From: an uncultured virus (IMG/VR IMGVR_UViG_2061766007_004328)
Lineage: Duplodnaviria; Heunggongvirae; Uroviricota; Caudoviricetes
DNA: 64,000 nt
Virus record (IMG/VR): IMGVR_UViG_2061766007_004328
Reading direction: 5' to 3' (one strand)
Shown: positions 24,137-53,200 of the stretch, piece by piece
How positions within the stretch are numbered: the stretch's first letter is position 1
Layout of the letters: each line of letters begins with the position of its first letter
The notes under the pieces: generated by a model
What the model was told of the DNA's origin: nothing
Database searches by the model: none
The model's input: the letters and a program-made list of their open reading frames with translations, nothing else
Translations under genes and position numbers: made by a program

Positions 24137-24145
24137 ATGTGGATG

Positions 24146-27151: not shown

Positions 27152-27152
27152 G

Positions 27153-27818: not shown

Positions 27819-27936
27819 GCCGCAATATAACAAGGATGGGTTTTTCTCCACTGCCCGGAAGGGGCCGAAAAGCGGCCCGGCCCCTGAAGGGCAATTATCA
27901 GAATTGATAAGTTTGTAACCAATCAGATAGAAGAAA

Positions 27937-28311: not shown

Positions 28312-28312
28312 T

Positions 28313-29172: not shown

Positions 29173-29190
29173 AAATTATTATTAACTTTA
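29146..29190 (+). promoter_or_regulatory. Class II palindrome plus promoter
   Basis: AAAAGCGTTTCA-ATT-TGCAACTCTT then TAACTTTA. Confidence 0.55.
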
Positions 29191-29207
29191 CAACACCAAA
29201 CGGAAAA

Positions 29208-29684: not shown

Positions 29685-29715
29685 TTGTCCGAAAGACGGA
29701 CTTTGACATATTCAG

Positions 29716-29787
29716 CCGCCGGTAGTTCAATGGATAGAACCCTGTTAATCGTAGCAGGAGATGGTCGTTCGATTCGATCCCGGCGGT
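29716..29787 (+). tRNA. tRNA-like gene (Arg-like D arm) with a non-canonical anticodon loop
   Basis: Acceptor CCGCCGG/CCGGCGG; D arm GTTC-AATGGATA-GAAC; T arm GGTCG-TTCGATT-CGATC; anticodon region CCTGT-TAATCGTA-GCAGG. Confidence 0.6.
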
Positions 29788-29803
29788 CAATTTTTATCTC
29801 GTT

Positions 29804-31988: not shown

Positions 31989-32425
31989 CAGGTCTCGCAG
32001 CCCGTGGCTACACCATAGAGGATATGGCGGAGGACATTGGCGTGGCCCAATCGACTCTGCATAAGTGGATAAACGAGAACGAAGAATTATCGGAGGCCTT
32101 AAAAAACGGTCGGTCGCTGCCGGACACCATCGTCGAGAACTCGCTGTACAAGCGGGCTACCGGCTATAAGATCACGAAGCGGAAGACCATCATTTCGAGT
32201 GCCGCCAACGGCGAACAGAAGCCGGTACGGGTGGAGGTGTCGGAGGAGGAGATCGCTCCCGATGTCACCGCCGCCATCTTTTGGTTGAAGAACAGACGGC
32301 CCGACCTGTGGCGTGACCGCCAGGATGTCACTATCAATTCCGAGGATTGGGTCGATGCGCTAACGGACGCAGTAAAGGAGTACGACAAAGATGCCGTCGC
32401 TGGTACGAAGGAAGGAGCTGATTAG
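31940..32425 (+). CDS. terS: Terminase small subunit
   Basis: HTH, VENSLYKRATGY, PDVTAAIFWLKNRRPDLWRD; precedes TerL. Confidence 0.75.
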   Translation: MARKSKFNPKYHIPWIAGLAARGYTIEDMAEDIGVAQSTLHKWINENEELSEALKNGRSLPDTIVENSLYKRATGYKITKRKTIISSAANGEQKPVRVEVSEEEIAPDVTAAIFWLKNRRPDLWRDRQDVTINSEDWVDALTDAVKEYDKDAVAGTKEGAD

Positions 32426-33962: not shown

Positions 33963-34011
33963 GACGGCTATTTCCGTTGCTGATAGTCGATTATCGACTG
34001 ATTGTCGGTTA

Positions 34012-34048
34012 AAAAGCGTTGTATTTTGCAACGCTTTTGTTATATTTG
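34012..34048 (+). promoter_or_regulatory. Class II palindrome plus promoter
   Basis: AAAAGCGTTGTA-TTT-TGCAACGCTTTT-GT-TATATTTG. Confidence 0.75.
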
Positions 34049-34078
34049 CGAAGTCGGTTCCAGTAAAAGTAAGTAAGT

Positions 34079-37397: not shown

Positions 37398-37458
37398 TGT
37401 AAATCATTGTGTATCAACGAAATAAATTTGCATTATTCCGTTAAAATCACTACCTTTA
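37398..37458 (+). promoter_or_regulatory. Class I repeated phage promoter
   Basis: TGTAAATCATTGTGTATCA..TTTGC..TACCTTTA. Confidence 0.65.
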
Positions 37459-37519
37459 TTATGCAATTCTAATACACCAACTACCAGTTGTTGGAAAGAT
37501 AGAGTTCTTTGAAATCCGA

Positions 37520-37715: not shown

Positions 37716-37770
37716 GAAGCCAAAGGTACAAAGAACCATCGGAACAAGCAACAAAAAAGCAAGTAAGTTT

Positions 37771-38187
37771 ATGAGTACGAGAGCACACATCAGAATTAAA
37801 GATGGCAATGGAGTGATAATGCTCTATCATCACAGCGACGGGTATCCGTCTGGAATCGGAAAGGATATCAAGCGGTTCATTGCTGAGAACTACGCCGGCA
37901 TCGATATCTGGGAGGCGGACAGAATCGCTACGGATATCGTTCGGGGATGCATTCGCACTTTGCGCAGCATATGGACCTTCTCTGGCGACTGGAGGAAAGA
38001 GGCAGCGCCGGATATGAACTACGATGTCACCAGTTGTGTCCACGGGGACGAGGAGTATATCTATGTCATTGACTGCGAAGAACGGACGCTGAAATGCTAT
38101 GACAGAAAACTGTCGGATGCTTCCGTGGAAGAAACCTGCGTTCCGGAGCGAGAATGCGAAATCCCGGACGATCGTAACGACAAATGA
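37771..38187 (+). CDS. Hypothetical protein
   Basis: MSTRAHI..LYHHSDGYPSGIG..HGDEEYIYVID; start motif. Confidence 0.7.
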   Translation: MSTRAHIRIKDGNGVIMLYHHSDGYPSGIGKDIKRFIAENYAGIDIWEADRIATDIVRGCIRTLRSIWTFSGDWRKEAAPDMNYDVTSCVHGDEEYIYVIDCEERTLKCYDRKLSDASVEETCVPERECEIPDDRNDK

Positions 38188-38444
38188 GGCGGGAAGTCTA
38201 CGAGGCGCTGAAAACGCGTCTGACGGTCAAATTCGTGAGGATTGGTGTTGCGACAATAGAATTTGACAATGAGGGATTGAATGATGGTTTTTCCTGCTTT
38301 GACGAGGGGTACATCGATATGATAAAGGTCGAACTCCGATCGAGGAGGTTCAGTCTCTGGAACGCAGCCCAGCGGGTTCATCAGATCATCCGTCGGTTCG
38401 CCCCGGATTGTGACGCCAGGCTGATTGACAATCCGTGGAAATAA
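38184..38444 (+). CDS. Hypothetical protein
   Basis: ATGA coupling. Confidence 0.55.
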   Translation: MRREVYEALKTRLTVKFVRIGVATIEFDNEGLNDGFSCFDEGYIDMIKVELRSRRFSLWNAAQRVHQIIRRFAPDCDARLIDNPWK

Positions 38445-38471
38445 GTAAATTTGTAAATCTGTTGTATTGCT

Positions 38472-38693
38472 ATGAGTGGGAAAACCAAAGCGAAGAAGTA
38501 TGTTGCGCCAGACGGGAGAGAGTACCCGTCTTACGAGGCGTATTGCAACGACCCGGATCTCGACCTCGACCTCATCCAGACGAAGCTGCTCTCCGGCGCG
38601 CGTAAGCCGCAGAACGACTTCGAGCGAAAGCTGCTGAAGGATATGCAGGCCGCTCTGAAGGAGGGGAAGTATTACGAGATTTACCCGGAGTGA
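38472..38693 (+). CDS. Hypothetical protein
   Basis: ORF. Confidence 0.55.
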   Translation: MSGKTKAKKYVAPDGREYPSYEAYCNDPDLDLDLIQTKLLSGARKPQNDFERKLLKDMQAALKEGKYYEIYPE

Positions 38694-38790
38694 TCCGGCC
38701 AACAACAGCGCTACAATCGAGCCGGGTTGAACCCACCAACCCCACCACCAACCGGGGCTTCCGCTATGAGATTCTCGGCGACTTATCGGA

Positions 38791-38828
38791 CAAGTTGGAA
38801 CCAAGTCGGGACCAAGTTGCGGACAAGT
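38791..38828 (+). repeat. Four CAAGT units at exact 11-bp period
   Basis: CAAGT at 38791, 38802, 38813, 38824. Confidence 0.65.
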
Positions 38829-38839
38829 CGAAAAATTAT

Positions 38840-38900
38840 CGTAACTCATTGAAAATAAATGCGTTAAATTTGCCTATTTCCCGTTAATTTCCTACCTTTA
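38840..38900 (+). promoter_or_regulatory. Class I repeated phage promoter
   Basis: CGTAACTCATTGAAAATAA..TTTGC..TACCTTTA. Confidence 0.7.
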
Positions 38901-38943
38901 CTATGTCAAAATAATACACCAACCATTTAGAAGTAAGTAAGTT

Positions 38944-39675
38944 ATGACGGACAGAGAAAAGCTCCTGCTCAAGACCTATGAGATCAGGAATCAAATCAAA
39001 GAACTGAAGGGCGAAGAGCTCTTCGACATCGAATCCTTCGCCGGCAGCTGGACATTCCGCAGCGATGCGAAGAAAGAAACGGTCGCAAGCCTCCAGCAGA
39101 AAATCGAGAACCTGACACGGGAGCTCGAGGCGGCAAAGAAGGCGAAGGCCCTCAAGGACAAGATCGACGCTTACCTGTCAACGGAGGAAGGCAAGCAGAG
39201 GATGGCCACCCTGGAGGAGCAGAAAGCCCTCGAGCTGGCGGTCTTCAGAAACTACCGGGACGAGAGCTTCGCCCGGCTCAACAGATTCGCAAAGGAAGTC
39301 ATTGGTGACGGATGGGCACTCGAATCGCTCTGCGACAATTTCGTCAAGTTCTCGATCGAAGACCCCCAGCGGCGCAACGGCCGGGATTTCGTCTTCGGGC
39401 AGAGCGTAGAGGTCTATTTCGAGCAGCACAGCTTCTTCGACAGAGAGAAGGGGCGTTTCGAGATGTCAATCGGCTCCACTGGATGCTTTGACATTCAGGC
39501 CACGGAGTACGGTGACCGCTCCCGGTTCTACATTGAGGTCGGAAAGTTCCTCGGAAACGAGGTAGCCGTCCAGCAGCTGAAGGAGATGCTGTTCCTCTAC
39601 GAAGAGAATATGAACGGCATCAAGACCCGCGTCCGCAAGCTGAACGAGCAGATCAAGAACCCCCTCGCGGCATAG
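38944..39675 (+). CDS. Hypothetical coiled-coil protein
   Basis: Start motif; ORF. Confidence 0.65.
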   Translation: MTDREKLLLKTYEIRNQIKELKGEELFDIESFAGSWTFRSDAKKETVASLQQKIENLTRELEAAKKAKALKDKIDAYLSTEEGKQRMATLEEQKALELAVFRNYRDESFARLNRFAKEVIGDGWALESLCDNFVKFSIEDPQRRNGRDFVFGQSVEVYFEQHSFFDREKGRFEMSIGSTGCFDIQATEYGDRSRFYIEVGKFLGNEVAVQQLKEMLFLYEENMNGIKTRVRKLNEQIKNPLAA

Positions 39676-39698
39676 TCGAACCTTAAAAGAAGCGAGTT

Positions 39699-40484
39699 AT
39701 GGGAGAATACGCAACACGAATCAAGGACGGCGAGCGGGTCAAGCTCGGCTCCTGCGAAGATTTGTTCTACTGCCGCTGGAACCAGCGGTACGATGTCACT
39801 GATTTCCCGGGAACGATGGAGAAGCGCTTTTGGCGCCTCCCGTTCCCGGATGAAGACTACATTCCGGTAGGCGACTTCGAGGATTACGAAGGCTGGAAGA
39901 GGAACTACTATTCGGCGCTCCATCGGTCGTTCGCCGAGAAGCTGAAGGAGGAGGAGAACATAATGGCGAAGCCGGGCAGCGTCACACTACGGCACGAAGA
40001 AAGCGGCCTGCAGGTGAGAATCCCCTGCTTCCACGGAATCAAGCTGCCGGATAATATCGGCGACTGCGCGGTAACGTGGAACGGGTACTGCTTCCCCGTC
40101 AGGCTGGTAGCTGTCAAGAACTACGAGAAGGAGCTGCGGATCGTTGCTGGATGCACCGCCTGCGGGCGGATTTGGAGCTTCTCGTTCGATGAGATCCAGC
40201 AGTACATTTTGAGCTACGAGATGCGGATGCGGCTCCTCAAGAGCTGCCAGGCATACTGGAACGACACGCACCCGGATGACGAGCCGAGCGGATATGTGGT
40301 CAGTGACCAGCTGGTCAAACGGGAGAACGGCAAGATCGAGATGAAGTGGGATTCGGAAGAAGACCTGTATCAGATTCTCATTGACGGAAAGCCGAGCAAG
40401 CAAGGCCACTGGTCGGAAATGAAGCGGGTCTATCTCGAGGAGTTGATAGCCGACCGGGGCGTGAGATATGTGGATTTGAAGTAG
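39699..40484 (+). CDS. Hypothetical protein
   Basis: ORF. Confidence 0.65.
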   Translation: MGEYATRIKDGERVKLGSCEDLFYCRWNQRYDVTDFPGTMEKRFWRLPFPDEDYIPVGDFEDYEGWKRNYYSALHRSFAEKLKEEENIMAKPGSVTLRHEESGLQVRIPCFHGIKLPDNIGDCAVTWNGYCFPVRLVAVKNYEKELRIVAGCTACGRIWSFSFDEIQQYILSYEMRMRLLKSCQAYWNDTHPDDEPSGYVVSDQLVKRENGKIEMKWDSEEDLYQILIDGKPSKQGHWSEMKRVYLEELIADRGVRYVDLK

Positions 40485-40507
40485 AATTGTAACAGAGTTG
40501 TTATAAA

Positions 40508-40810
40508 ATGGAAAAGACGATGATTACCAAAGCCGATGCAGTCTCCGAGATTTCGGAGCTGCTCGGCATTAAGGAGTGGAAGCAGGAGGCCGGCGAGGAC
40601 AAGCCTGCCGGTGAACTGTCGTTCTTCGTCCGGGATGACGATAACGGCGGCGCGTCCTTCTTCGTTGACAAGCGGCATATCCCGCACGACGATGTGATCA
40701 AAAAGCTGATGAGCTATTTCGAAGACCGCGAGTTCTCCGATGACGGAGAGTGCGCCGTCTCGCCGATCGTGGCCCTATACACCGTATTTTCGATTCAAGG
40801 AAAGGAGTGA
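40508..40810 (+). CDS. Hypothetical acidic protein
   Basis: ORF. Confidence 0.55.
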   Translation: MEKTMITKADAVSEISELLGIKEWKQEAGEDKPAGELSFFVRDDDNGGASFFVDKRHIPHDDVIKKLMSYFEDREFSDDGECAVSPIVALYTVFSIQGKE

Positions 40811-40812
40811 GT

Positions 40813-41001
40813 ATGGCAGCGAAGAAGAAATACGATTTCACGATCCACGTGGAAGACCAGGGCCTGTACGAAGTGTATTTCCATATCAAGGCCGACACCG
40901 TGGCCGAGGCGAAGGAGAAGGCACGCAAGCGGTTCATCCGCGAGAACTGGAACCGGCGCCACCTGAAGGCGTACACGGTCGAGAAGAGCTACAATTTTTA
41001 A
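40813..41001 (+). CDS. Hypothetical protein
   Basis: Small operonic ORF. Confidence 0.5.
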   Translation: MAAKKKYDFTIHVEDQGLYEVYFHIKADTVAEAKEKARKRFIRENWNRRHLKAYTVEKSYNF

Positions 41002-41022
41002 CGAAATAGAGTAAGTAAGTCT

Positions 41023-41259
41023 ATGAAAGATCTGTTTTCACGAGTCCTGTCAAAGATACGAGACGGGATGAAAATTACGTTCACGCCGGACAATGTGGCA
41101 GAGGATGACAACTTTCTGCTGCTCGGCGAGAAAGGCAGTTGCACGGTCACGTTCCACACGAAGAACGTCCCCTACTGGCTGGAGTTTGACAACGACGAGC
41201 CGATGCGTCTCGAGGACGTGCCGAGCTCGTTCCTTCGTTCGATCCTTAAAAACGTGTAG
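41023..41259 (+). CDS. Hypothetical protein
   Basis: Start motif. Confidence 0.55.
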   Translation: MKDLFSRVLSKIRDGMKITFTPDNVAEDDNFLLLGEKGSCTVTFHTKNVPYWLEFDNDEPMRLEDVPSSFLRSILKNV

Positions 41260-41262
41260 GCT

Positions 41263-41505
41263 ATGAACTGTACGGAGTGTATCTCGTGGATTCCGAAGGA
41301 GAAGCGATGCGGCCGAGGAATCAAGGTGGCCATCCCAGAGAGGACGATCTGCCGGTTCTGCCTCAAGCATACTGTGGTCCAGTTCGGAGAAAAGGGTGGC
41401 GGAGAGCGGCACTACCTGACGAACGCCGCCGGACGGTCGTTCGACATCACGGATCAGATAATTAAGAAAGCGAAGAAGGAGGAAGACGATGAAGCTAAGA
41501 AATAG
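41263..41505 (+). CDS. Small Cys-containing hypothetical protein
   Basis: CxxC motifs. Confidence 0.5.
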   Translation: MNCTECISWIPKEKRCGRGIKVAIPERTICRFCLKHTVVQFGEKGGGERHYLTNAAGRSFDITDQIIKKAKKEEDDEAKK

Positions 41506-41818
41506 GATTACGGGCGAGGTTTTCGAGGCGGAGAGATTTACATCAGATTACGTCACTGTCGTCCGGCGCAATGAGAGGGGCGAGATGACAAAGGAAGTCT
41601 ATCGACCGGGAGTTATCGAGCCGGTCTTTATGTATGACCGTGACGCATTCATCCGCGAAACGGCGAAGGCGTGTCTCGCCGGACTGATGGCCAACACGAA
41701 CTGCCCCGTGTCGAGCGGGGCCGAAATGATGGCCGGGCTTGCGCTGACCGCGGCCCGGTGTCTTGCGGATCAGATCGATGCTGCGTCCGCGAAAGAGAAT
41801 GAAGCCGCCAGGCAGTAG
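41489..41818 (+). CDS. Hypothetical protein
   Basis: Overlap-coupled ORF. Confidence 0.55.
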   Translation: MKLRNRITGEVFEAERFTSDYVTVVRRNERGEMTKEVYRPGVIEPVFMYDRDAFIRETAKACLAGLMANTNCPVSSGAEMMAGLALTAARCLADQIDAASAKENEAARQ

Positions 41819-41913
41819 GCGGCGACGGTACCTCCGGGACTTGCTTCCGTTGGTTATTATTTTGGCAGGAGGCTCGCTGTGGTGGCGGGCCTCCATTTTT
41901 TGCGAAAAATTTG

Positions 41914-41974
41914 CATAAATCATTGATATTCAGTGCGTTATATTTGCATATATTCGTACTTTTTCCTACCTTTA
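41914..41974 (+). promoter_or_regulatory. Class I repeated phage promoter
   Basis: CATAAATCATTGATATTCA..TTTGC..TACCTTTA. Confidence 0.7.
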
Positions 41975-42049
41975 CAATACCAAAGGAAACACCCAAACCC
42001 CAACGGAGTGAAGGGTGAGACGCCAAAAAGTAACCAAGTAAGTAAGTTT

Positions 42050-42244
42050 ATGGAAAAGATGTTGAACAAGACGATGGAGGTGATTGGAATCATCCTCTTC
42101 GTAGCAGCGATCGCGGCTTTCATCGCCGCCTTCGTCAGAAAGCAGGGCTACCTGTTCTTCGTAGCCATCGTAAGTTGGGAGCTCGGCAAAGCAGTCGTGG
42201 CCTCCAGCAAGGTTGAACCCAAAGCAGAGGAGGAGTCGAAATGA
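42050..42244 (+). CDS. Small membrane protein
   Basis: Start motif; hydrophobic segments. Confidence 0.55.
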   Translation: MEKMLNKTMEVIGIILFVAAIAAFIAAFVRKQGYLFFVAIVSWELGKAVVASSKVEPKAEEESK

Positions 42245-42864
42245 GCACCACGGTCTATTCGATGGCTCTGATTCAGGGCAAGCTCGGAGAGGTAAAGATT
42301 ACTTGCGAGATGACAAGTGGCATCGGCATCCACGTGGTCGGGTTGTTCGATTCCCAGGTCAAGGAGAGCCTGCTGCGGGTCATAACCGCAATGCAGGCGG
42401 GCGGGNNNNNNNNNNNNNNNNNNNNNNNNNNNNNNNNNNNNNNNNNCGAGCCGAGAATCCCGAAGCGCTGGGATGTCAAGGGGTCGCAGCTGGATCTTCC
42501 GATAGCCGTGGCCATACTGGCGGAGAGCGGACAGGCTGAGCTGAACGGCTTTACCCTTCCGATGTTCTGCATCCTCGGAGAGTTGTCCCTGGACGGTCAG
42601 GTTCGGGACTTCAGCGGCCTTTCCGGATTCGAGATTATCAAGGAAGGCCGGCGGGCGTTCTCCGACATCGTGCTCCCGGTAGAGAAGGCAAAGGAGGCGG
42701 TGTCGCTGATGTCCGACACGATGTTCGTCCCCAAGACGCTGAAGGAGGTCATTGAGCTGCTGAAATCGACGGACGAAGAAGAACAGAGGTTTTCGTTCTG
42801 GAAGTCGGCGGAATGGCGGGAGCTGTTCGGACGCCTTTCGGAGATGAACGATTGGAGCAAGTAG
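42241..42864 (+). CDS. Stand-alone N-terminal domain of the ComM/YifB Mg-chelatase-like family
   Basis: VVGLFDSQVKESLLRV, KGSQLDLPIAVAIL, LGELSLDGQVR; no AAA+ domain; spans an N gap. Confidence 0.7.
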   Translation: MSTTVYSMALIQGKLGEVKITCEMTSGIGIHVVGLFDSQVKESLLRVITAMQAGGXXXXXXXXXXXXXXEPRIPKRWDVKGSQLDLPIAVAILAESGQAELNGFTLPMFCILGELSLDGQVRDFSGLSGFEIIKEGRRAFSDIVLPVEKAKEAVSLMSDTMFVPKTLKEVIELLKSTDEEEQRFSFWKSAEWRELFGRLSEMNDWSK

Positions 42865-42868
42865 TGTT

Positions 42869-43321
42869 ATGAAGACCTACAAGTTCACGATCCAGCGGAG
42901 GGTCATCGGGGATGGCGCTCCCGTGAAGGCGGTCAATCCCGAGACCGTTGTCCGATACCTGATGAAGAATTGTTTCAAGACGGAAGAGATGTTCCGGGAG
43001 AACTGCTGGCTGCTGCTTTTGGACAGAGGTCAGCAGATAGTAGGAACGCACCACCTGTCGATGGGCGGCATCGGATTCACCGCGATTGACATCAAGATAG
43101 CTTGTAAGGCGGCGATCGATACGCTGGCTTCCGGCGTAATCCTCGCCCACAACCACCCGTCAGGAAACCCGATGCCGGGAAACCTCGACAGGGATGCTAC
43201 GAAGCATCTCAAGAAGGCTCTCCGCATCTTCGACATAGAACTGATCGACAGCATCATCGTCACGGACGAGAAGTATTTCAGCTTCGAGGACGAGGTTGTC
43301 AAAGCAATGCCGGAGGAATGA
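42869..43321 (+). CDS. RadC-like JAB domain protein
   Basis: ILAHNHPSGNPMP..D..LIDSIIV. Confidence 0.85.
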   Translation: MKTYKFTIQRRVIGDGAPVKAVNPETVVRYLMKNCFKTEEMFRENCWLLLLDRGQQIVGTHHLSMGGIGFTAIDIKIACKAAIDTLASGVILAHNHPSGNPMPGNLDRDATKHLKKALRIFDIELIDSIIVTDEKYFSFEDEVVKAMPEE

Positions 43322-44382
43322 GTATGGCCTGGACGTTCACGATTCACTACAAGAGCCAGAAGTCGGAGCATAACGAGTTCGTCTGTAATGCGGCCGACGC
43401 GGAAAAGGCGGTCGAGAAACTGAAGGCTACATACCCGGACCTGAAGGTGACGGTCACGAAGATCTCGCAGAAGAAATGCAAGAGCGTCTATCAGATCGTC
43501 ACCGATCGGGTGCTGGAGGAGATGAAGAAGGGTGTCATCCCGTGGCAGCGGCCCTGGCACGGAATTATGGACGGAGCCGTTTCCTACGAGACTCTCCGCC
43601 CCTACTCGTTCCTGAACCAGCTGCTGCTCGGAAAGCCTGGCGAGTGGCTCACGTGGAACTATATCCACCAGCACGGCGGAAGCGTCAAGAAAGGTGCGAA
43701 GTCCGGCTTGATCACGTTCTGGAAGACCTACGTGGCCGGACGGGACGAAGATGAGACCGCGGAAGAGGAGAAGGACGGCAAGGCGCCGGAGAAGCGGTGG
43801 GTGCTGCGGTACTATCGCGCGTATCATATAGAAGATGTTGTCGGCATCGAAAGCAAGCTGGCCAAGATAGCCAAGGCCGACCGTCAGGTAGAGCCGATAG
43901 ATGCGGCAGACAAGGTGGTGCAGGGATATATCGGTCGGAACCGTCCGCTCAGGCTGGAGGTGGAGGCCAGTAACCGGGCCTGCTATTCCCCGTCAAGGGA
44001 CGTGGTAACCGTCCCGCTGCTGGAGCAATTCGACCTCCCGGAGCAGTTCTACGGGACGCTGTTCCACGAACTCGGTCACAGTACAGGTCATCCCAGCCGG
44101 CTCAACCGAAACGACGGGATGAAGGGCCACTTCGGAGATTCGGACTACGCCAAGGAGGAACTCGTAGCGGAGCTGACCTCGGCTATGGTCTGCGACCACC
44201 TCGAACTGGACTGCGAGAAGGCGTTCAAGAACACGGTCGCCTATCTACAGAACTGGATGCAGGCCCTCGAGAACGACGAGCGGCTGATCGTCTTTGCGGC
44301 TTCCAGGGCGGAGGCCGCTGCGAAGTACATTCTCAACATTAAAGAAACGGGCGAAGGAGGCCCGGATAGCAATGGAAACTGA
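43318..44382 (+). CDS. ArdC-like antirestriction ssDNA-binding/zincin protein
   Basis: VYQIVTDRVL..PWQRPW, LFHELGHSTGH, YAKEELVAE, AASRAEAA. Confidence 0.85.
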   Translation: MSMAWTFTIHYKSQKSEHNEFVCNAADAEKAVEKLKATYPDLKVTVTKISQKKCKSVYQIVTDRVLEEMKKGVIPWQRPWHGIMDGAVSYETLRPYSFLNQLLLGKPGEWLTWNYIHQHGGSVKKGAKSGLITFWKTYVAGRDEDETAEEEKDGKAPEKRWVLRYYRAYHIEDVVGIESKLAKIAKADRQVEPIDAADKVVQGYIGRNRPLRLEVEASNRACYSPSRDVVTVPLLEQFDLPEQFYGTLFHELGHSTGHPSRLNRNDGMKGHFGDSDYAKEELVAELTSAMVCDHLELDCEKAFKNTVAYLQNWMQALENDERLIVFAASRAEAAAKYILNIKETGEGGPDSNGN

Positions 44383-44737
44383 ATATCTGAACAGAGTTGA
44401 ACTCCGTGGCCGTGTCGGTCACGAGCCGAAAATCTTCAGCGTCGGCGACAGTAAGCTGGCGCGGTTCTCGGTAGCTACGAACGAATCGTACAGAGCCAGG
44501 AACGGCGAGCTGCGGGAAGAGGTGACGTGGCACAACGTGTCCGCTTGGGACAACCGTAAGGTGGCGCCGCTCGAGACCATCAGGAAGGGGTGTTTCGTTC
44601 ATCTCGTTGGTCGCATCCGCACCACGCGGTACACAGCAAGCGACGGAAGTGAGCGCACACTGGTCGAAATCGTGGCTGGGGAGCTCGAAGTGGTCACAGA
44701 ACCGCCGCAGTCCCAGACCGGCTCCGTAGATAGCTAA
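44372..44737 (+). CDS. ssb: Single-stranded DNA-binding protein
   Basis: LNRVELRGRVG..FSVATNESY..TWHNV..KG..GRIRT. Confidence 0.9.
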   Translation: METEYLNRVELRGRVGHEPKIFSVGDSKLARFSVATNESYRARNGELREEVTWHNVSAWDNRKVAPLETIRKGCFVHLVGRIRTTRYTASDGSERTLVEIVAGELEVVTEPPQSQTGSVDS

Positions 44738-44786
44738 AAAGCCGTTTTGCCGGACAAATTTGAAGTTGCGGCTATATTTTTTCTGC

Positions 44787-44823
44787 AAAAGCGTTGCAAA
44801 ATGCAACGCTTTTCTTATATTTG
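44787..44823 (+). promoter_or_regulatory. Class II perfect palindrome plus promoter upstream of head genes
   Basis: AAAAGCGTTGCA-AAA-TGCAACGCTTTT-CT-TATATTTG. Confidence 0.8.
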
Positions 44824-44827
44824 CATC

Positions 44828-44906
44828 GAGCCTCCCGATTCGCGGGCTAAGTCTCATAAACTTACTTCGCTGAGGCAGCCCCGGGATTTGGGGTTGCCTC
44901 AGTTAT
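44828..44906 (+). ncRNA. Candidate multi-target antisense sRNA / structured leader
   Basis: Hairpin, then GTCTCATAAACTTACTT (reverse complement of the gene start motif), then 13-bp stem CTGAGGCAGCCCC/GGGGTTGCCTCAG followed by TTAT. Confidence 0.5.
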
Positions 44907-44929
44907 AAAAACAAAAGCAAGTTACACTT

Positions 44930-45649
44930 ATGAAGACTAAAGTCCTCGAAGAATTGAAACCGAAAGCGGCGTCGCTCGGGTTCAATGATGAAGAGCTCAC
45001 CACCGCGAGCGAGAACATCGCAGGCGGGCTCAAGGAAGACGCCACCACTGAGGAGATTGCAGCGGCTGTTGACGCGGCGATCCCGTATCTGAAGCTTTCG
45101 CAGAGTGCGGCCAATCGGTCAATCGAACGGTTCAAGACGCAATTTGAGAAGGATCACCCCACGAAGACAAAAGAACAGGAGGAAGAGGAGCGCAAGGCCA
45201 AAGAAGAAGCCGAGCGCAAGAAGAAAGAGGAGGAGGAACGCCTGGCCAAGCAGGAGCCCGAGTATTTCAAGAAGTACCGGGAAGCTATGGAGAAGCGTTT
45301 CGATGCTTTGGAGAAGGAGAATGAAAGGCTCAAGTCCGAGAAGCAGGATTCCGATTTCCGCAAACGCGCGGTTACTGGTCTTGAAGGAGTTGACGAAGAC
45401 TTCTATCAGATGCTGCTCGACGGCAGGAAGTTCAAGGACAACGACGATGTTGACGCGTTCGTTGCCGACGTCAAGTCGAAGTGGGAAAAGCTGAACGAGA
45501 AGTTCGGAAAGAAGCCCCTCGCAAGTATGCGCCCGCCGAAAACCGGCACCCCTGCGGCAGATCAGCCCAGCCAGGAAGTCAAGGATCGGATCGAGCGCCG
45601 AAAGGCACAGAAAAAGGCGTCCCCGATTCGCGGGCTTGAATCAAAGTGA
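44930..45649 (+). CDS. Probable capsid scaffolding protein
   Basis: Charged coiled coil upstream of capsid genes. Confidence 0.6.
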   Translation: MKTKVLEELKPKAASLGFNDEELTTASENIAGGLKEDATTEEIAAAVDAAIPYLKLSQSAANRSIERFKTQFEKDHPTKTKEQEEEERKAKEEAERKKKEEEERLAKQEPEYFKKYREAMEKRFDALEKENERLKSEKQDSDFRKRAVTGLEGVDEDFYQMLLDGRKFKDNDDVDAFVADVKSKWEKLNEKFGKKPLASMRPPKTGTPAADQPSQEVKDRIERRKAQKKASPIRGLESK

Positions 45650-45681
45650 TGCCGCAGTATTAACCGTTTATCGTTCTAACA

Positions 45682-46419
45682 ATGAACAAGGACAATTTCA
45701 AAGTAAACGAAGAGCCCGGCAAGATGCCGGTCATCTTCGACCAGGTTTTCGCTGAGAAGGCTGGTGGTGGCATTGTGAAGAACGCGGCCTATGACCGTCA
45801 TCCCGGCCTGGCCGTTTCCGAGGACGGTGTCTGCCTGAAGGCAGCTCGTCTGGTGGAAGCAATCACCGCCGTCAGTACGACCATCAAGGTCACGAAGGAC
45901 AACGGCTTCGCTGTGAACGATTACGTCGCTACCGGCAAGGTCGCCGTCCAGATCACCGCCATCGACAAGTCCCACGCCGACTATGACATCCTGACCGCTT
46001 CGTTGGGTGTCGCTCTCCCGAAGGGCGCAGTCGTGTTCGAAGCTACCACGGCCAGTGTCGAGGCTGTCGAGGAAGTGGCCTACGGCTACTACGACGCCGA
46101 CAGCGAGACCGAAGGCGCACTCAAGGTTGTCGCCAGCTCCGCCGGTGAAGGCGAAATCGCCCTCGCCGATGTCACCCCGTACCACGGCATCAAGAATCTC
46201 GCCGCAGACGACTACGTTGTTCTGAAGAACAAGGTCGATGGCGTCGCCGGTGTCGATGCCACCCCGAAGGTCGTCCCGGCTTTCGTTCTCGGTACGTTCC
46301 TCCCGGCCAACTGCGGCGATGAGCTCGCCAAGCTGGTCAACGGCGCGAACGTTCGCAAAGAAACCGCCCTGTTCCCGGCCGAAATCGCCGATATGATGAA
46401 GGGCATCCACCTCATTTAA
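45682..46419 (+). CDS. Probable head decoration protein
   Basis: Ala/Val-rich; between scaffold and major capsid. Confidence 0.5.
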   Translation: MNKDNFKVNEEPGKMPVIFDQVFAEKAGGGIVKNAAYDRHPGLAVSEDGVCLKAARLVEAITAVSTTIKVTKDNGFAVNDYVATGKVAVQITAIDKSHADYDILTASLGVALPKGAVVFEATTASVEAVEEVAYGYYDADSETEGALKVVASSAGEGEIALADVTPYHGIKNLAADDYVVLKNKVDGVAGVDATPKVVPAFVLGTFLPANCGDELAKLVNGANVRKETALFPAEIADMMKGIHLI

Positions 46420-46438
46420 CGCATAGGAGAGAAAGACT

Positions 46439-47558
46439 ATGGCAGATATGAACAAGCCTCTGATGGATATCGATCAGCCGTCGATGCAGGCGGAGATCGA
46501 GTCCTACGAGATGGGCGAAGGCAAGGTATGGCCCATCCTGTTCCCTCTGAAGCCTACCAGCAAGTTCGACATCAAGTCGCTCGCCGGCAAGGAGGGTGTT
46601 CCCATTTCCGCTGACCGCGTTGCGTTCAACGTCAAGGCGAAAGCCAAGACCCGCAAGACCATCGGTTCGTGGAGCGGCAAGCTCGGTAAGATTTCCATCG
46701 AGCGTGACAAGAACGAAATCGACATCAACGAGTATCAGGATCTGTCCGCTATCGTGGCGGCTCTTCCCGAAGGCTCCGACAACTCCGCAAAGCAGGAGTT
46801 GGTCGATATGGTGTACGATGACGTCGAGTACGTGAACGTCGGTATGGACACCAAGGTCGAGGTCGATGCCTGCCGCATCGGCTCGNNNNNNNNNNNNNNN
46901 NNNNNNNGGCGACAACGCCACCGAGGACATCATCAACTTCAACGTTCCGGCTGAGAACTTCAACGGCGTGGCCGTCGTCTGGAGCAACCACAAGGACGCT
47001 GACGGTATCTCCGATATCGCCAATCGCTACAAAGCGATGCGTGCGAAAGGTAAGCATCTCCGCTACGCCATTATGGAGCAGCAGGCTTTCGAGCATCTGT
47101 GCGCCCAGGAGGCTACGCTGAAGAAGCTGTCGGGCTACAACGCCCTGACCGGCAAGTCGCTCATCCTGACCCAGAACTCGGTCACGATCGAGGCCATCAA
47201 CTCGTTTATGATCTCCCAGGGCTTCCCTCAGATTCTCGTCATCGAGACCGAGGCTGGCATCGAGGGCGACGACGGCGAGGTGACCACGATCAAGCCGTGG
47301 GCTCAGAATGTCGTCACCCTGGCTCCGACGATCCAGCTCGGCTGGACGTACTGGAAGACCGTCCCGACCGTGCCGAACACCGACGCTGTGCAGGCGTACG
47401 GCCCGTTCTACAAGGTCACTCGCTACTCGCAACTGAACCCGATGCTGGAGGTCACTCTGGCGGAGGCGTACATCCAGTGCGTGCTCATCAACCGTTCCAC
47501 CGTGAACTTCCTGAACACGCAGTACGTGAGCACTTGGAACGGCGGCGAACCCGCCTAA
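46439..47558 (+). CDS. Major capsid protein (frame broken by N gap 46886-46907)
   Basis: Two ORF halves joined across the gap; SADRVAFN, WSGKLGKISIER; size and position. Confidence 0.7.
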
Positions 47559-47571
47559 AGCAGTCTGACCT

Positions 47572-47892
47572 ATGGATGTAAGGAAAGCGCTCTTGAGCAC
47601 GGTGTCATTTCCCCTGTCCGCCGGACAGGTGGAAGTGATTGCCGAGGATAGAGACCTCAAGCTCGATGCTGAGTACACGAAGAAGATTGGCAAGACCGAA
47701 GGCTTCCAGCTGGCCAAAGCCGATATGATCCGCTGCATCATCACGGCACCCAACGTGTCGGAGGGCGGCGTCAGCATATCGATCGAAGACCGCAAGACGC
47801 TCATCGGAATCGCCAACGGAATCTATGCGAAGTACGAGCCCGAATCCTTTATCCAAGAGGCCATCCCGACGGTAACACCGATTGAAGACTGA
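47572..47892 (+). CDS. Head-tail adaptor-like protein
   Basis: APNVSEGGVSIS; position after capsid. Confidence 0.6.
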   Translation: MDVRKALLSTVSFPLSAGQVEVIAEDRDLKLDAEYTKKIGKTEGFQLAKADMIRCIITAPNVSEGGVSISIEDRKTLIGIANGIYAKYEPESFIQEAIPTVTPIED

Positions 47893-47904
47893 CACGGAGG
47901 AGCT

Positions 47905-48252
47905 ATGATCGAAGTCAGGTTCAGACCTCATACGATTTCCCTGCTGGATGTGGTCGCCGGTGGATATGACGACAAAGCCGAAGGCGTCGTCCCCGGTGAC
48001 TACATTCCCGGCACGGAGGTTTGGTCGGAAAGAATCCCCTGCCGCTACGAACCGAACGGGCGTGCCCGTACGATACCCGTAGGCAACGGCAAGGACTATG
48101 TGTACGAGTACACAGTTTATCTCAACACGGACTGCCCCGACGTGAGGTACGGGCAAGAGTGCCGGTTGTACGACCAGAATGGGGTCTGTATCGGAAAGTT
48201 CAAGGTTCAGGGCTTCCACCGTGGTCAGCTGGACGCGAAAATCTGGGTCTGA
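47905..48252 (+). CDS. Head closure-like protein
   Basis: Position; VQGFHRGQLDAKIWV end. Confidence 0.55.
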   Translation: MIEVRFRPHTISLLDVVAGGYDDKAEGVVPGDYIPGTEVWSERIPCRYEPNGRARTIPVGNGKDYVYEYTVYLNTDCPDVRYGQECRLYDQNGVCIGKFKVQGFHRGQLDAKIWV

Positions 48253-48272
48253 CACCGAAAACAGCAACGGAT

Positions 48273-48674
48273 ATGGGAAAGATTTCCGAAATCGAAATCA
48301 AGGACAAGTTGTACTCCCTGCTCGTATCGAAGGGGGTTGACACGAAGATCACCGGGCATATCTACAAGGATAAGCGCCCGACGAACTCGATGTCCGAGGA
48401 TATCTGGATCAGCGTGCTGGACAGCGATACCGAGCAGGTTCAGGGTTTCATCGTCAACGTGAACGCGTATGTGCCGAATGTCAAGCGCGGCGACGAGCTG
48501 ATCATCAACGATCCGAGGATTCGCGAGCTGTCCGCCATCCTGCTCGAGGCCCTCGCCAGCACGGTCGCCGGCGGCTTCCAGATCGCCATCGCAAAGCAGA
48601 GGGTGATGGAAGTTAACGACACGCCGCTTCACGTCATTAACAACCGCGTTATCGTACAGTATTGCACTGCGTAG
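48273..48674 (+). CDS. Tail terminator-like protein
   Basis: ITGHIYKDKRP..EDI..VNVNAYVPN; position before tail tube. Confidence 0.55.
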   Translation: MGKISEIEIKDKLYSLLVSKGVDTKITGHIYKDKRPTNSMSEDIWISVLDSDTEQVQGFIVNVNAYVPNVKRGDELIINDPRIRELSAILLEALASTVAGGFQIAIAKQRVMEVNDTPLHVINNRVIVQYCTA

Positions 48675-48744
48675 TAACCGAGTGACTATCAGTCGCTTAA
48701 AGCGAAAGTAATTCGTTAGTAACATCGTTAACACCTGTAAAGCT

Positions 48745-49320
48745 ATGACTCAACAGAAACTGTCTATTGCGTGGGGTAAGCCGAAAATCTTCTACCGCAA
48801 GGTTACCGATTCCTTCTGGAAAAAGGTTCCTGACGTAGTGGAGGATTCGTATCAGCTCACGCCGACGAAGGGTGACAAGAAGACTGCGAACGTTGAAGGT
48901 GGTGAGGCCGAGGCTGTGAAGCACAAGGCCAATTCGTATGAGGCCGCTTACGCACTGCGCCTGGCCGCAGAGCGCGAGATGCACATCGACCACACGAACG
49001 GTCTCGTGGATGACGAATACGCCCTCTGTGTCATCCCGGAAGACGCCAATGTCCCCGGCCCGTACATCGAGCGTTCCGAGGTGTCCGTCGAAGACCCGAT
49101 GAACGCCGAGGATGGTTCCAACTGGACTTACACGCACTCCTGCTTGAAGCCGGTTTCCGGCGGCAAGATCGTGAAGTGGGGCAAGTTCACCGCGACCGAG
49201 GGTACCGGCGCCGATGCCGGCAAGTACACCATCGCCGCCGCCCAGGGCTACGACTTCGCAGCTGCCACCCAGCTGCAGCCCTCCGGCAGCGGTAGCGGCA
49301 GTGGCTCCGGCTCTGCTTAG
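48745..49320 (+). CDS. Major tail (tube) protein
   Basis: AWGKPKI..LTPTKGDKKTANVEGGE; C-terminal GS repeat. Confidence 0.65.
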   Translation: MTQQKLSIAWGKPKIFYRKVTDSFWKKVPDVVEDSYQLTPTKGDKKTANVEGGEAEAVKHKANSYEAAYALRLAAEREMHIDHTNGLVDDEYALCVIPEDANVPGPYIERSEVSVEDPMNAEDGSNWTYTHSCLKPVSGGKIVKWGKFTATEGTGADAGKYTIAAAQGYDFAAATQLQPSGSGSGSGSGSA

Positions 49321-49368
49321 AAACCTAAACCGCTCTTCGCCCGTCGGAGCATAAACGACGGGCTATAC

Positions 49369-49447
49369 ATCCCCGTAGCTCAGTTGGTAGAGCGCTACGG
49401 ACGGCCTGTAGCCGTAGGGGTCGCTGGTTCGAATCCAGTCGGGGAAA
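49369..49447 (+). tRNA. tRNA-like gene with an enlarged anticodon loop
   Basis: TCCCCG/CGGGGA acceptor; GCTC-AGTTGGTA-GAGC D arm; GCTGG-TTCGAAT-CCAGT T arm; CTACGG-ACGGCCTGTAG-CCGTAG anticodon arm. Confidence 0.65.
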
Positions 49448-49605
49448 CAAAGCAGTTTGCCGGATGCAGGTGGGCGACACTATACAATGGGACACCGTGA
49501 AAGGTGTGGTGGATGGCGTTGTAGAGAGCGTTGCCGGTACGCGGTGCCTCGCCCGACTCGATAACGGCAAGTGCGTAATTGTTGACCAATCAAGCATCAT
49601 CGAAG

Positions 49606-50106
49606 ATGGCAAAGAAAAAGATTGAAGAACGTGTCGCCGATACCATCCTGCAGCGCGACATCACTGTTTCGGCCGGTGGCCGGAGCTTTACCGTCCCGGC
49701 GCCAACGCTCGGGACTCTCATTATGGTTTCAGAGCGAATCGCGGAGATACCGTATCTGGGCGCCGAGAAGAACGCGGCGGTCATTCTCGCGAACGCACGG
49801 CAGGGCCACGCCATCGCGGAGGTGCTTGCCATTTATATCCTCGGAGCAAAAGCCATCAAGGAGGACGTAAACGCCCCAAAAAAGAGACTTTCGTTCCTCT
49901 CCAAAGGTAACACCCCGAAGAGCAAGCTGGAGGAGCTGACGGAGGATATAGAGCTATCTATGACACCCGGGGATATGAACGCCCTGTACGCCCAGCTGAT
50001 CGAAGCAACCGACTTTTCGGATTTTTTCGAAGTTTCCACTTTCCTGAGAGAAGCAAGTCTGACAAGGCCGACGAAAGTGGAAACGACAGCATCTGGGCAG
50101 TCGTAG
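49606..50106 (+). CDS. Tail assembly chaperone
   Basis: Between tail tube and tape measure; slippery T TTT TTC at 50022-50028. Confidence 0.7.
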   Translation: MAKKKIEERVADTILQRDITVSAGGRSFTVPAPTLGTLIMVSERIAEIPYLGAEKNAAVILANARQGHAIAEVLAIYILGAKAIKEDVNAPKKRLSFLSKGNTPKSKLEELTEDIELSMTPGDMNALYAQLIEATDFSDFFEVSTFLREASLTRPTKVETTASGQS

Positions 50107-50291
50107 CAGGCATTGTCAAGTCGTTCAACGTCACTTTCGAGTACGTGTTGTATGAAATGAGCTACCAGAATCTGTCGCTCTACAGCGCCGTTTTGCCCCG
50201 ATACGACTCGAAGAAACAAGAAAGCAAGCCGATGTACAACGGCGATAATCTGGAAAGCGTAGAGGCATTTATCCGAGCAAATAACTACTGA
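50022..50291 (+). CDS. -1 frameshift extension of the tail assembly chaperone
   Basis: Open -1 frame (..DSIWAVVAGIVKSFNVTFEYVLYEMSYQNL..) to TGA at 50291. Confidence 0.6.
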   Translation, partial: FFRSFHFPERSKSDKADESGNDSIWAVVAGIVKSFNVTFEYVLYEMSYQNLSLYSAVLPRYDSKKQESKPMYNGDNLESVEAFIRANNY

Positions 50292-50293
50292 TT

Positions 50294-53200
50294 ATGGCTG
50301 ACGACGGAAGAATCCATATAGTAATTGACGGTGACGCATCGGCGTTGAAGAAGGCGCTGACTGACGTCAAATCGTCCCTCAATGAGACCGACAAGCAGGC
50401 GAAGGCCGCCGGTACTTCCGTGGAGAAGTCCACGTCGAAGATCGGCCAGTCGCTCAGTTCGATGGCTGCGAAGTATCTTTCAGTGGCCGCTGCCGCTGCC
50501 CTGGTCGCAAAGACGATCAAGAACGTCATCGAGACCAACAAGCAGTTCGAGCGCAAGGCGTCCGAACTTGCGTCCATTCTGAATACCACGAAAGACGGTG
50601 TAGAGGATCTGACGAAAGCGGCAAGCGAGCTGGGCCGCACAACGGAGTTCACGGCTTCGGAGGTGGTCGATCTGCAGATGGCTCTCGCCCGTCTCGGCTT
50701 CACGCAGTCGCAGATTCTTGATATGGAAGGTCCGGTGCTGAAGTTTGCCGCCGCAGTCGGCGCAGACCTCGGATCTGCGGCCAACTTTGCCGGTGCAGCC
50801 CTTCGCGGCTTCGGCCTTGAGGCAAAGGATGCGAACCATCTGCTCGATGTGATGGCCGCTTCGACCACGAAATCCGCCCTCGACTTCCACAAGCTGGAAA
50901 CCTCGATCGCTATCGTGGCGCCGGTCGCCCATTCGTTCGGCCTGTCAGTCGAGGATGCGATTACCCTGCTCGGCTCGCTGTCCAACGCGGGCTTCGGTGC
51001 ATCTATGGCAGCTACGGCAACCCGTAGAATCCTGTTGAACCTCGCGGATGCCAACGGCAAGCTGGCGAAGGGTCTTGGTCACACGGCGCAGACGTTCCCG
51101 GAAATCATAGCCGCCCTGAAGGAGTGCCAGGAGAAAGGCATCGACCTGAACGATACTCTCGAGATGACCGACACGCAGTCCGTGGCTGCGTTCTCTGCTC
51201 TCATCAACGGAGCCGACTCCGCAGAAGAGCTCCGTAAGGCTCTCGGCGATGTGGACGGAACGCTGAACGATATGTACGAGACGATGACGGACAACCTTGC
51301 AGGTGCCATCAAGCAGCTGTCGTCCGCGTGGGAAGGTCTGGTACTTACGATGCAGAACTCCACCGGGCCGATGGCCAGCGTGGTGAAGCGTCTTGCCCGT
51401 GGAATCAATATCCTGACCGACCTCGCGGAAGGAAAGACGCTCAGCGAGGCGAAGCAGAAGCAGATGGGTGAAGCCATTATGGCAACCGGCCAGTTCAGCA
51501 CTGTCGAGGATTACGACAAAGAGATCAACCGTCTGCTTTATAAAGAGGGGGGCGCAAGAGGGAAAGAGCTTCAGTACCTTGAGGGCCTGCGATACGCCCG
51601 TATGCAGACATATATCAAGGAGCAGAACGCCGCCATAGAAGCGATGTTCGCCGAAGATTCGGGCACCAACGGTGGTGGTGGCGGTGGTGGTAATCACGTG
51701 CTGACCGATGCCGAGAAGAAAGCCATCCAGCGATATAGGGAAGCCTACGAGAAGGCTGTCACGCAAATGTGGAAGGAGGTCGATAACTCGACCGTAGCAG
51801 CTATGCAGGAAGGCACAGCGAAGAAGCTGGCGCAGATCCACAACGAGGAGAAGCAGGCCATTGCCGCAATCGACGAGGAGCAGGACGAGCTGGAGAAGGC
51901 CGCGAAGAAGGCCGGCAAGACCGTCTCTCAGGAAACATACGACCAGTTGCAGCAGCGCAGGGAGAACGCCCACAAGGTCGCTCGCAACAAGGAGGATGAC
52001 GTTCTGATGGAGCAGCTGCAGAACCAGTGGGACTACCTGACTACATACGGCAGCTACAAAGAGCGGGAGCTGGCCATCACGAAGAAGTATGACGAGGAAA
52101 TCGCACGTGAGCAGGATGAGTTCAAGAAGAAGATTCTCGAGAAGCAGAAGGAGGCAGAGCTGGCGCAGAATGAGCTGGCGCAGCTGCAAGAGACATACGG
52201 CGATCCGGAAGACTACCAGAACGTCGAGAAGGCGAAGGAAGCCACGGAGAAACTGTACGAGGCGCAGATAAAGGTGGCGCAGGCGAAGGGCGACACCGCC
52301 GAGGCGATGAAGCTCCAGCTGGAGCTGCAGAAGAAGCTCGATGACATCGACAAGCGGAAGGGCGGCAAGTTCTACAACGTGTTCCGTGACACCGACCGGA
52401 TGAACATCGTGCAGATCCAGGAGGCCATACAGACCGCCGAGGAGCAGATCGAGAAGATGTCGGCTGACGCCAACGCGAAAGCCAGTGATATAGACGCCTG
52501 GCGGCAGGCCCTTCAGAACCTCAAGCAAGCCGCCAACGATTTCTCGCTGCCCGGCGTGCTGAAAAGCCTGTTCTCCATAGATAAGGACAACCCGAATGAG
52601 GGTGCCAGCCTTGCGGATCGCCTCAAGGCGCTGAAGAAGGCTTGGGACAATATGTCCGCAGAGGACAAGTGGAAGAATATCGGTGGATGGGCTGCCAAGA
52701 TCGGTGAAAGTCTCGGCAGGGCCGCTGAGTTTATGAATCAGCTCGCCGACATAAGCGGTGACGGACGGCTGAAGGAATCCGCCGAGCAGCTGGGCGCCGT
52801 GGCGCAGAACTTCGCTGCTGCTGGTCAGGGTGCCGCGGCCGGAGGATGGATCGGAGCCATCGTAGGAGGAGCGGGCGATATGCTCTCGCAAACCATAGCT
52901 GCGATAACCGAATCCGCGCTGATGGAGGCCCAGGCCAAGAAGAACGCCGAGGATTGGGCGATGGCCCTGAAGAACGTCGGCGTGGAGATGGATATTCTCT
53001 CTTACGAATCGCCTTTCGGCGACCGGAAGCTGGCGAAGGGTCGCGAGGCGATGCGTTCGTCGCTCGAGGCCACGAAGCGGTATAGCGAGGAGCTTGCGGC
53101 CCTCAATAAGAAATACTCCGAGCAGGAGATAGAGCAGTACACCCAGCGGTCGATCGGCTCCACGGTGTTCGGCTTCGGAGCCGGTGGCCTTATCGATATG

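Follow-up and report, generated by a model that had tools for sequence, protein, structure and literature searches.

A conserved late-operon leader RNA carrying an anti-start sequence in Bacteroidota-type phages

The window, a stretch of 64,000 nt from an uncultured virus (IMG/VR record IMGVR_UViG_2061766007_004328), reads as a Bacteroidota-type prophage according to its PHROG matches, on which the following gene assignments are based. An integrase gene lies on the minus strand (1874-3196), and early recombination and replication genes (SbcC/SMC-like, RecT-like, replication initiator, dUTPase and resolvase) begin at 6035. The genes of the terminase (31940-33962), the portal protein (34079-35497) and a minor head protein (35497-37392) follow. 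Besides head-morphogenesis families, the latter also matched the ADP-ribosyl transferase family phrog_16625 (E 3.9e-68). A block of early-type genes (37771-44737) ends with an antirestriction-like gene and an SSB gene (44372-44737; phrog_44, E 5.7e-20). The late head-tail operon is headed by a scaffold-like gene on the plus strand (44930-45649; phrog_5824, E 2.5e-22), downstream of which the tape measure gene (50294-54229) and tail genes are located. The window contains seven N runs (12834-12860, 14690-14734, 15360-15372, 29562-29615, 42406-42446, 46886-46907 and 59133-59163). As two of them fall in likely genes, some ORF calls near N runs are incomplete.

The leader studied here lies in the 192 nt that separate the SSB gene from the scaffold-like gene. 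The early-type block is closed after the SSB gene by a terminator hairpin of 12 pairs with a T-rich tail on the plus strand (44787-44813), which relatives keep with a different stem sequence. It is followed by the box TATATTTG (44816-44823, plus strand), which presumably represents the Bacteroidota -7 consensus TAnnTTTG; a sigma-70-style scan additionally flagged 44794-44821. A module of hairpin terminator and TTATATTTGC promoter is shared between the scaffold leader (44787-44825) and the portal gene (34010-34050). The leader RNA proper is placed at 44830-44906 on the plus strand, with an approximate 5′ end deduced from the box and with a 3′ end at this position only if the hairpin terminates. 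It comprises the anti-start sequence GTCTCATAAACTTACTT (44851-44867), here termed seed, and a GC-rich, terminator-like hairpin with a U-rich tail (44869-44903).

Folding of 44826-44912 gave a small 5′ hairpin, the unpaired seed and the long hairpin with -37.8 kcal/mol (z -4.76), and none of 200 shuffled sequences was as stable. The layout of promoter, small hairpin, unpaired seed and GC stem described in the earlier note was confirmed, but the stem has 15 pairs, three of them G.U, and not 13. The tail of the hairpin is a weak TTAT in the window and TTTTAT, TTTTTATT, TTTAT or ATATTT(T) in relatives, with good U-tails in G001 and L034 (TTTTTATT and ATATTTTTTTT). The leader hairpin was not called in a terminator scan of the window, and no family described as antiterminator was found in a PHROG scan of 78 ORFs. 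Rfam models at gathering thresholds detected two tRNAs only in the whole window. At E ≤ 10, five Rfam matches were obtained for 44700-45000, none of which overlapped the leader past 44823, and their scores were 10.6-16.3 bits compared to gathering thresholds of 50-97. A literature search found no publication on the leader or on the GTAAGT motif described below.

Part of the stretch is contained in seven RNA-labelled runs, and the contigs of four of them, from two studies, were examined. In these four runs, the contigs start at 44843, 44851, 44853 and 44843, that is 20-30 nt downstream of the -7 box, and no contig covered 44586-44842. One contig of 4520 nt extends from 44843 through the hairpin and the scaffold-like gene into late genes. 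Leader and late genes are joined in RNA libraries, and because the contigs run into late genes, the element is at minimum the 5′ UTR of the late mRNA. As contigs give no strand, ends or levels, their starts hint only weakly at a 5′ end located shortly before 44843; the plus-strand orientation is supported by the promoter box and by the order of hairpin and U-tail. The discrete RNA of about 75 nt that had been postulated finds no support in the contigs, which cannot resolve 3′ ends and read through the hairpin into late genes.

Bacteroidota phages initiate translation without Shine-Dalgarno pairing, and to our knowledge almost nothing is known about the timing of their gene expression. In the Bacteroidota themselves, initiation is likewise not led by Shine-Dalgarno sequences (PMC6847099). 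The start motif of the window has the form (AGTA)nAGT and is followed by ATG after 0-5 nt. On the plus strand, 25 GTAAGT clusters were counted, and for 19 of them the next 8 nt contain the ATG start codon of an ORF with a length of 40 aa or more, which agrees with the proposal of a start motif common to about 19 phage genes. Two of seven minus-strand clusters precede such an ATG, namely at the gene starting at 3766 and at the antisense of the seed. The motif had been thought to be limited to early and inserted genes. This does not hold, since the portal gene (34079) carries it as well, with only 8-9 nt of pairing with the leader, and the term ‘early regulon’ is too neat because this late gene also bears the motif. 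It had also been claimed that the motif is missing from 44930 onwards. This stands insofar as the sole ATG-adjacent GTAAGT past this position (60581) lies, in the ORF list, out of frame inside ORF 60145-60852, but the scaffold-like gene itself has a degenerate copy (AAGCAAGTTACACTTATG).

At all of its sites, the motif places TAA stops immediately ahead of the ATG through its repeated TAAG, in as many as three reading frames (e.g. 8035-8050 and 19664-19679). A composite promoter module was found five times before early and moron genes (5965-6034, 21612-21683, 37423-37480, 38865-38943 and 41938-42010). It consists, in this order, of GCGTAAATTATTG..., TAnATTTGC, about 20 nt, TACCTTTAC, a conserved CAAAATAATACACC leader and the start motif.

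As the earlier note had stated, the seed complements the SbcC/SMC-like start region (6025-6041, plus strand) without a mismatch (17/17), and this start is its best predicted partner in trans in the window. The 17-mer AAGTAAGTTTATGAGAC has one plus-strand site (6025-6041) and one minus-strand site (44851-44867) in the window. When up to three mismatches were allowed, seven matches were found versus 0.08 expected, a number reached in none of 100 shuffles. The perfect pairing of 13-15 nt with six further gene starts was confirmed, too. Uninterrupted complements of the leader on the plus strand had lengths of 17 nt (6025), 15 nt (19667 and 37761), 14 nt (18926 and 12054) and 13 nt (8038 and 42040), the one at 37761-37775 belonging to the start of gene 37771. 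Each of the seven extends into the ATG of an ORF of 64-654 aa or ends shortly after it, and no complement of the leader reached 9 nt on the minus strand elsewhere in the window.

Relatives were searched for at the nucleotide and protein level. A scan of viral contigs with the 17-mer led to the 72-kb relative G001, which was also the only viral contig matching a leader 20-mer with one N; an exact 32-mer of the leader had no match in viral contigs. For the scaffold-like protein, 82 relatives were found at E ≤ 1e-10. Of the best 29, 26 were aligned with the protein of the window; P0001 was left out as 99% identical, and P0024 and P0028 as short fragments. A search with the scaffold-protein alignment yielded 19 viral and 14 metagenome loci. 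No relative was found with the scaffold-like protein in genome contigs by single-protein or alignment-based search or in viral contigs by single-protein locus search, and 43300-46500 gave no blastn match among GenBank phages. The leader could be aligned at 14 loci, which represent nine distinct sequences from at least four lineages. They are grouped into window/L030; L031 and L041; G001/L032; L040; and a third lineage (L012-16, L033 and L034). The remaining loci are distant, and their leaders were neither alignable nor matched by the covariance model.

Among the nine distinct leaders, the -7 box is conserved as TATATTTG or TATCTTTG, and GAGC, GTCTC and ACTTACT are invariant. The sequence of the hairpin turns over, yet it stays paired: five of 15 RNAalifold pairs changed on both sides, and in the hairpin test this applied to four of nine pairs with 87.7% of cells paired. 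In the RNAalifold consensus, the seed is unpaired between a 5′ stem and the hairpin. The covariance model R1, which was built from the nine leaders, scored the window with 85.2 bits over 44828-44916. It found a single copy in each phage, which invariably precedes the scaffold-like gene directly, and none in three distant genomes. The element is a conserved late-operon leader RNA with an anti-start sequence and is new to Rfam.

The start motif was also counted in relatives. AGTAAGT occurs 14 times on the gene strand of G002 and 12 times on that of G003, compared to two and three occurrences of the reversed-pattern control, and the single AGTAAGT on the opposite strand of each is the seed. The distant genomes G004, G005 and G006, with four, zero and four occurrences against five, 14 and 11 of the control, showed neither an enrichment of AGTAAGT nor an anti-start complement at gene starts. 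Motif and anti-motif co-occur and are jointly absent in distant relatives; as anticipated, the seed is kept in relatives that retain the GTAAGT start motif and absent from distant ones without it. A block of early-type genes with its own promoters and start motifs separates the minor-head gene from the scaffold leader in the window (37771-44737), in G001 (∼43300-52100 in window orientation) and in G002 (∼23600-29950), and is SSB-terminated in the window. This block is present in all three lineages; it is ancient within the clade and was not inserted recently.

It is highly improbable that a minus-strand gene (ORF 44339-44857) using the shared start motif is expressed from the seed site. Motif and ATG do open a frame of 172 aa, and a true minus-strand gene, the one starting at 3766, does use the motif. 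The frame is, however, antisense to the whole SSB gene and itself without a PHROG match, and the U-tail of the hairpin lies on the plus strand. Its ATG is changed to ACG in G001/L032 and L040, and only three codons are left in lineage 3. A minus-strand protein-coding gene was rejected since neither start codon nor open frame is conserved, and the view of the site as a plus-strand RNA feature was upheld. A signal at the DNA level, with the inverted copy as a regulator binding site or recombination site shared with the first gene of the early operon, is very unlikely as well. The exact inverted 17-mer does occur at two promoter-proximal sites (6025 and 44851), but about 19 further copies of the motif have a single orientation and a fixed distance to the ATG, which indicates a signal at the level of RNA or translation. 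In addition, the two sites of G001 differ by an insertion and a transition with RNA pairing preserved, and the site is situated in an unpaired stretch flanked by two conserved RNA structures.

The 5′ half of the seed overlaps with a second predicted structure. Full-length leaders were folded with the first 21 nt of the gene, and the 5′ arm paired with its own start region in nine of nine cases, in MFE structures as well as in pair probabilities. The probability of the seed being paired with its own start region ranged between 0.35 and 0.91. In the window, the 5′ arm of this cis helix (44839-44858, plus strand) pairs with 44929-44950. The 3′ arm is formed by the scaffold-like start region with the first seven codons (44913-44950, plus strand), and the AUG (44930-44932) lies within the helix.

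A set of 18 long-range pairs plus the hairpin was tested on an alignment in which the additional codon of one lineage is correctly positioned. Of 241 cells, 88.4% were paired in comparison to 35-45% with a slid partner, the former value being inflated because the structure was derived from one member. The covariation score was 0.275 versus 0.180 for shuffled alignments and was matched in 0 of 500, with about four independent lineages contributing. Four of ten pairs of the outer helix changed on both sides. The compensatory changes reach into the coding sequence, where a G-C to A-U change lies opposite the codon change CTC to TTT and a U-A to C-G change opposite GAA to GAG. The AUG is covered by the pairs 27-124, 28-123 and 29-122, helix 2 is 93% paired, and the CAT-to-CGT change, which is the plus-strand counterpart of the ATG-to-ACG change in the minus frame, preserves a G.U pair with the AUG (pair 28-123: AU in seven and GU in two leaders). 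The leader thus has the AUG inside a helix whose pairing is kept by compensatory substitutions, as would be expected of a self-inhibitory cis leader. Against composition-matched shuffles, the cis duplex reached z values of -4.6, -2.5, -2.9, -2.8, -0.9, -2.2 and -2.0. Its energy is ordinary against random windows of these GC-rich genomes, as 21-68% of 3000 do as well, and the long-range helix was missing from the prediction by RNAalifold alone, which contained the 5′ stem and the hairpin. Given that the seed forms one side of a covarying helix whose other side is the start of the gene downstream, a cis role is at least as well supported as a trans regulon.

The ordinary energy of the cis duplex would also be compatible with a stretch that exerts no regulatory pairing and acts as an insulating terminator-promoter junction with a stabilising 5′ structure, its likeness to gene starts resulting from A/T-rich starts and common descent. 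Terminator-promoter modules do recur as a building block of the phage. We consider this reading quite unlikely in view of the 17/17 match accompanied by six of 13-15 nt where 0.08 are expected, the invariant GTCTC and ACTTACT in a leader whose hairpin sequence turns over, the compensatory changes extending into the coding sequence and the G.U pair kept by the CAT-to-CGT change.

Pairing in trans was studied by duplex scans. These were repeated with the unpaired seed core only, because the GC-rich flanks of the seed had swamped the scan with GC-rich coding windows. The best non-self duplex in the window was formed with the SbcC-like start (-24.6 kcal/mol), and the orthologous start was also the top partner in G001 (-24.4 kcal/mol). 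Gene starts accounted for eight of the ten best non-self peaks in the window, but for only three of ten in G001 and in G002 with its own seed. Complements in trans were no longer than 12 nt in G001; in G002, whose own seed belongs to the CAC type of lineage 3, they were no longer than 9 nt with that seed. CAC is a mismatch to AUG and is carried by four lineage-3 phages, while the CAT-type seed of lineage 3 is an exact complement of the G002 SbcC-like start over 14 nt. The SbcC-like start was rejected as a single conserved target, as other starts outscore it in G002 and it ranked second even for module 1 alone.

The seed is nevertheless matched more closely by foreign starts than by its own. 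The longest exact complement to the own start is only 6-7 nt (7/7 leaders) versus 17 nt in trans in the window, 12 nt in G001 and 14 nt for the CAT type of lineage 3. In all three lineages in which the SbcC-like start is known, its ATGAGAC is complemented by GTCTCAT without interruption, yet a 1-nt bulge opposite the leader’s own start (ATG-R-AGAC) is kept in nine of nine leaders. The spacing of the seed partly tracks that of the start motif: the seed of the window has three A’s, matching GTAAG-TTT-ATG, and those of L040 and of lineage-3 module 1 have two A’s, matching AGTTATG in their own contigs. The seed of the G001 group has one A in excess, which results in a 1-nt bulge. Lineage 3 has two anti-start modules in tandem. 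The mean probability of the seed being unpaired was 0.53-0.66 in the short form and 0.09-0.54 in the full-length form of the leader.

These data bear on the possibility that an sRNA is the main function, that is, a hairpin-terminated RNA of about 75 nt whose free seed blocks many phage starts, with pairing to the own gene being incidental and with a role in early-to-late shut-off or in silencing in the lysogen. Such a function as a whole appears possible but rather doubtful. The layout of promoter, unpaired seed, hairpin and U-rich tail is sRNA-like, with a stronger tail in relatives (e.g. TTTTTATT), and StxS is a precedent for an sRNA from a late leader (PMC7547250). The better fit of the seed to other starts, the bulge that is kept opposite the own start, the tandem modules of lineage 3 and the joint presence and absence of motif and anti-motif point in the same direction. 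On the other hand, RNA contigs cross the hairpin, the TTAT tail of the window was not called as a terminator, covariation favours the cis helix, seeds are weaker in G001 and the CAC-type phages, and the portal gene has the motif with short pairing only. The central claim of the earlier note, one RNA blocking the initiation of a whole regulon, is thus retained in part: the anti-start is conserved and gene starts are the top partners in the window, but the matches are weaker in relatives and the anti-start belongs to a covarying cis helix. Both the discrete sRNA and the regulon are putative.

On balance, we slightly favour the stretch as a cis-acting anti-start leader of the late head-tail operon, which possibly also acts in trans. 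The leader would be read on the plus strand from the TATATTTG box and consist of the 5′ arm, the strong hairpin with its U-rich tail, an A-rich spacer and the start of the scaffold-like gene. Its 5′ arm would hold the anti-start, the complement of the phage start signal AAGTAAGT-TT-AUG-AGAC. In the full-length late mRNA, the arm may close over the scaffold start and thereby limit or time the access of ribosomes. As it matches the starts of other genes uninterruptedly, it could also pair with them in trans, above all with that of the first early gene (SbcC-like), and block initiation there. This would be easiest in transcripts ending at the hairpin, because the arm is then unpaired. Cis sequestration of the scaffold start seems the better supported part, and the trans role is plausible but unproven. 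Whether it acts mainly on its own message or on early genes, the leader probably controls translation by base-pairing, since it carries the complement of the start signal of about 20 other genes as well as of its own. A helix over the AUG of an abundantly needed gene is counter-intuitive and speaks against this explanation.

A further but unlikely reading is a reciprocal switch between mRNAs in a phage-private start code. The late leader would shut the capsid-assembly genes via their own imperfect start region, and abundant early messages with a perfect start signal (GTAAGT-TT-AUG) would invade the leader helix. This invasion would unlock late translation and at the same time block the starts of the early messages themselves. 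If true, one sequence of 20 nt would time the change from early to late without the need for a protein, and GTAAGT would serve specifically as a signal for initiation, with a reader predicted to be cellular, in a phylum whose translation starts without Shine-Dalgarno pairing.

Several known systems resemble the leader in some respects. The small antisense RNAs of phage immunity, P1 C4, P4 CI and P22 sar, pair with phage genes at their start sites or close by and thereby shut off an operon. They have one or two targets and belong to the immunity region, and C4 and CI are cut from a precursor and have their targets in the same operon. Unlike these RNAs, the leader, which is not known to be processed, precedes capsid genes, lying between the SSB and scaffold-like genes about 40 kb from the integrase end, and an immunity RNA of this type was rejected due to this location outside the immunity region. 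Self-inhibitory 5′ leaders are found in E. coli rpoS, which is opened by DsrA, RprA and ArcZ, and in lambda N, which is opened by RNase III. As in these two, an upstream segment of the 5′ UTR is predicted to pair with the start region including the AUG, and the cis helix is imperfect with a conserved bulge like metastable regulatory helices. The difference is that the arm is a near-perfect complement of the starts of about seven other genes.

Late leaders are also the origin of lambda 6S RNA, which arises from PR′-tR′. StxS is an sRNA from the PR′-tR′ late leader of lambdoid phages (PMC7547250). The arrangement is alike in that a promoter directly before the late genes produces a short structured leader with a hairpin and with a seed able to pair with other messages, as a by-product of the wiring of the late operon. 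The predicted partners here are, however, the phage’s own starts, and not the host rpoS or a toxin message. The StxS and 6S type involves an intrinsic terminator directly after the late promoter, an antiterminator that reads through it or a chaperone, and the accumulation of a discrete short RNA; the present leader is known from sequence and RNA contigs. It has a covarying helix with its own downstream start, of which we know no counterpart in StxS, and no sequence or Rfam relation to StxS or lambda 6S.

T4 RegA is a protein repressor which competes with the ribosome at the starts of about 30 early and middle messages (PMC3014915). One phage-made factor would likewise act on many start regions here; RegA is a protein with loosely defined A/U-rich sites, whereas here an RNA would recognise a sharply delimited motif through base-pairing. 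GibS and other Bacteroides sRNAs act by base-pairing at start regions (PMC7366714). They are chromosomal and metabolic, and the present leader is phage-borne and directed at a phage-private start motif.

In an entire clade of uncultured siphophages from rumen and gut, about 8-19 gene starts per genome bear a sharp motif that is private to these phages, and each phage keeps exactly one RNA complementary to it, which is built into the leader of the capsid operon. Acting in cis, in trans or in both, this leader is a mutable handle for testing RNA-based translation control in these phages and for asking what reads GTAAGT, and it can help to annotate the late promoters and leaders of phage genomes from metagenomes. 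If the cis reading alone is true, it is a fairly ordinary new leader family.

The distant relatives L021 (2880-3000), L023, L024 and L017 have an unrelated leader sequence upstream of the scaffold-like gene with the same layout, in which the 5′ arm is followed by a terminator-like hairpin ending in a long run of U and then by a 3′ arm covering the start codon. Complementarity between the arms of distant unrelated leaders exceeded that of shuffles in three of five cases (z of -0.4 and +0.3 for the other two). L021 and L023 contain an internal CTTCAT that is paired with ATGAAG further upstream. A leader peptide in L021 (22 codons, ending in ATGA) was rejected, as it is not kept in the close relative L037.

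Three tRNA or tRNA-like genes were observed in the window. A tRNA-like call with a four-base anticodon (29716-29788, plus strand) was made by ARAGORN only and is absent from the Rfam matches. A phage-borne tRNA-Met (24062-24136, minus strand) has its own TATCTTTGC box at 24153, and a tRNA-Pro(CGG) (49369-49448, plus strand) is located within the late operon.
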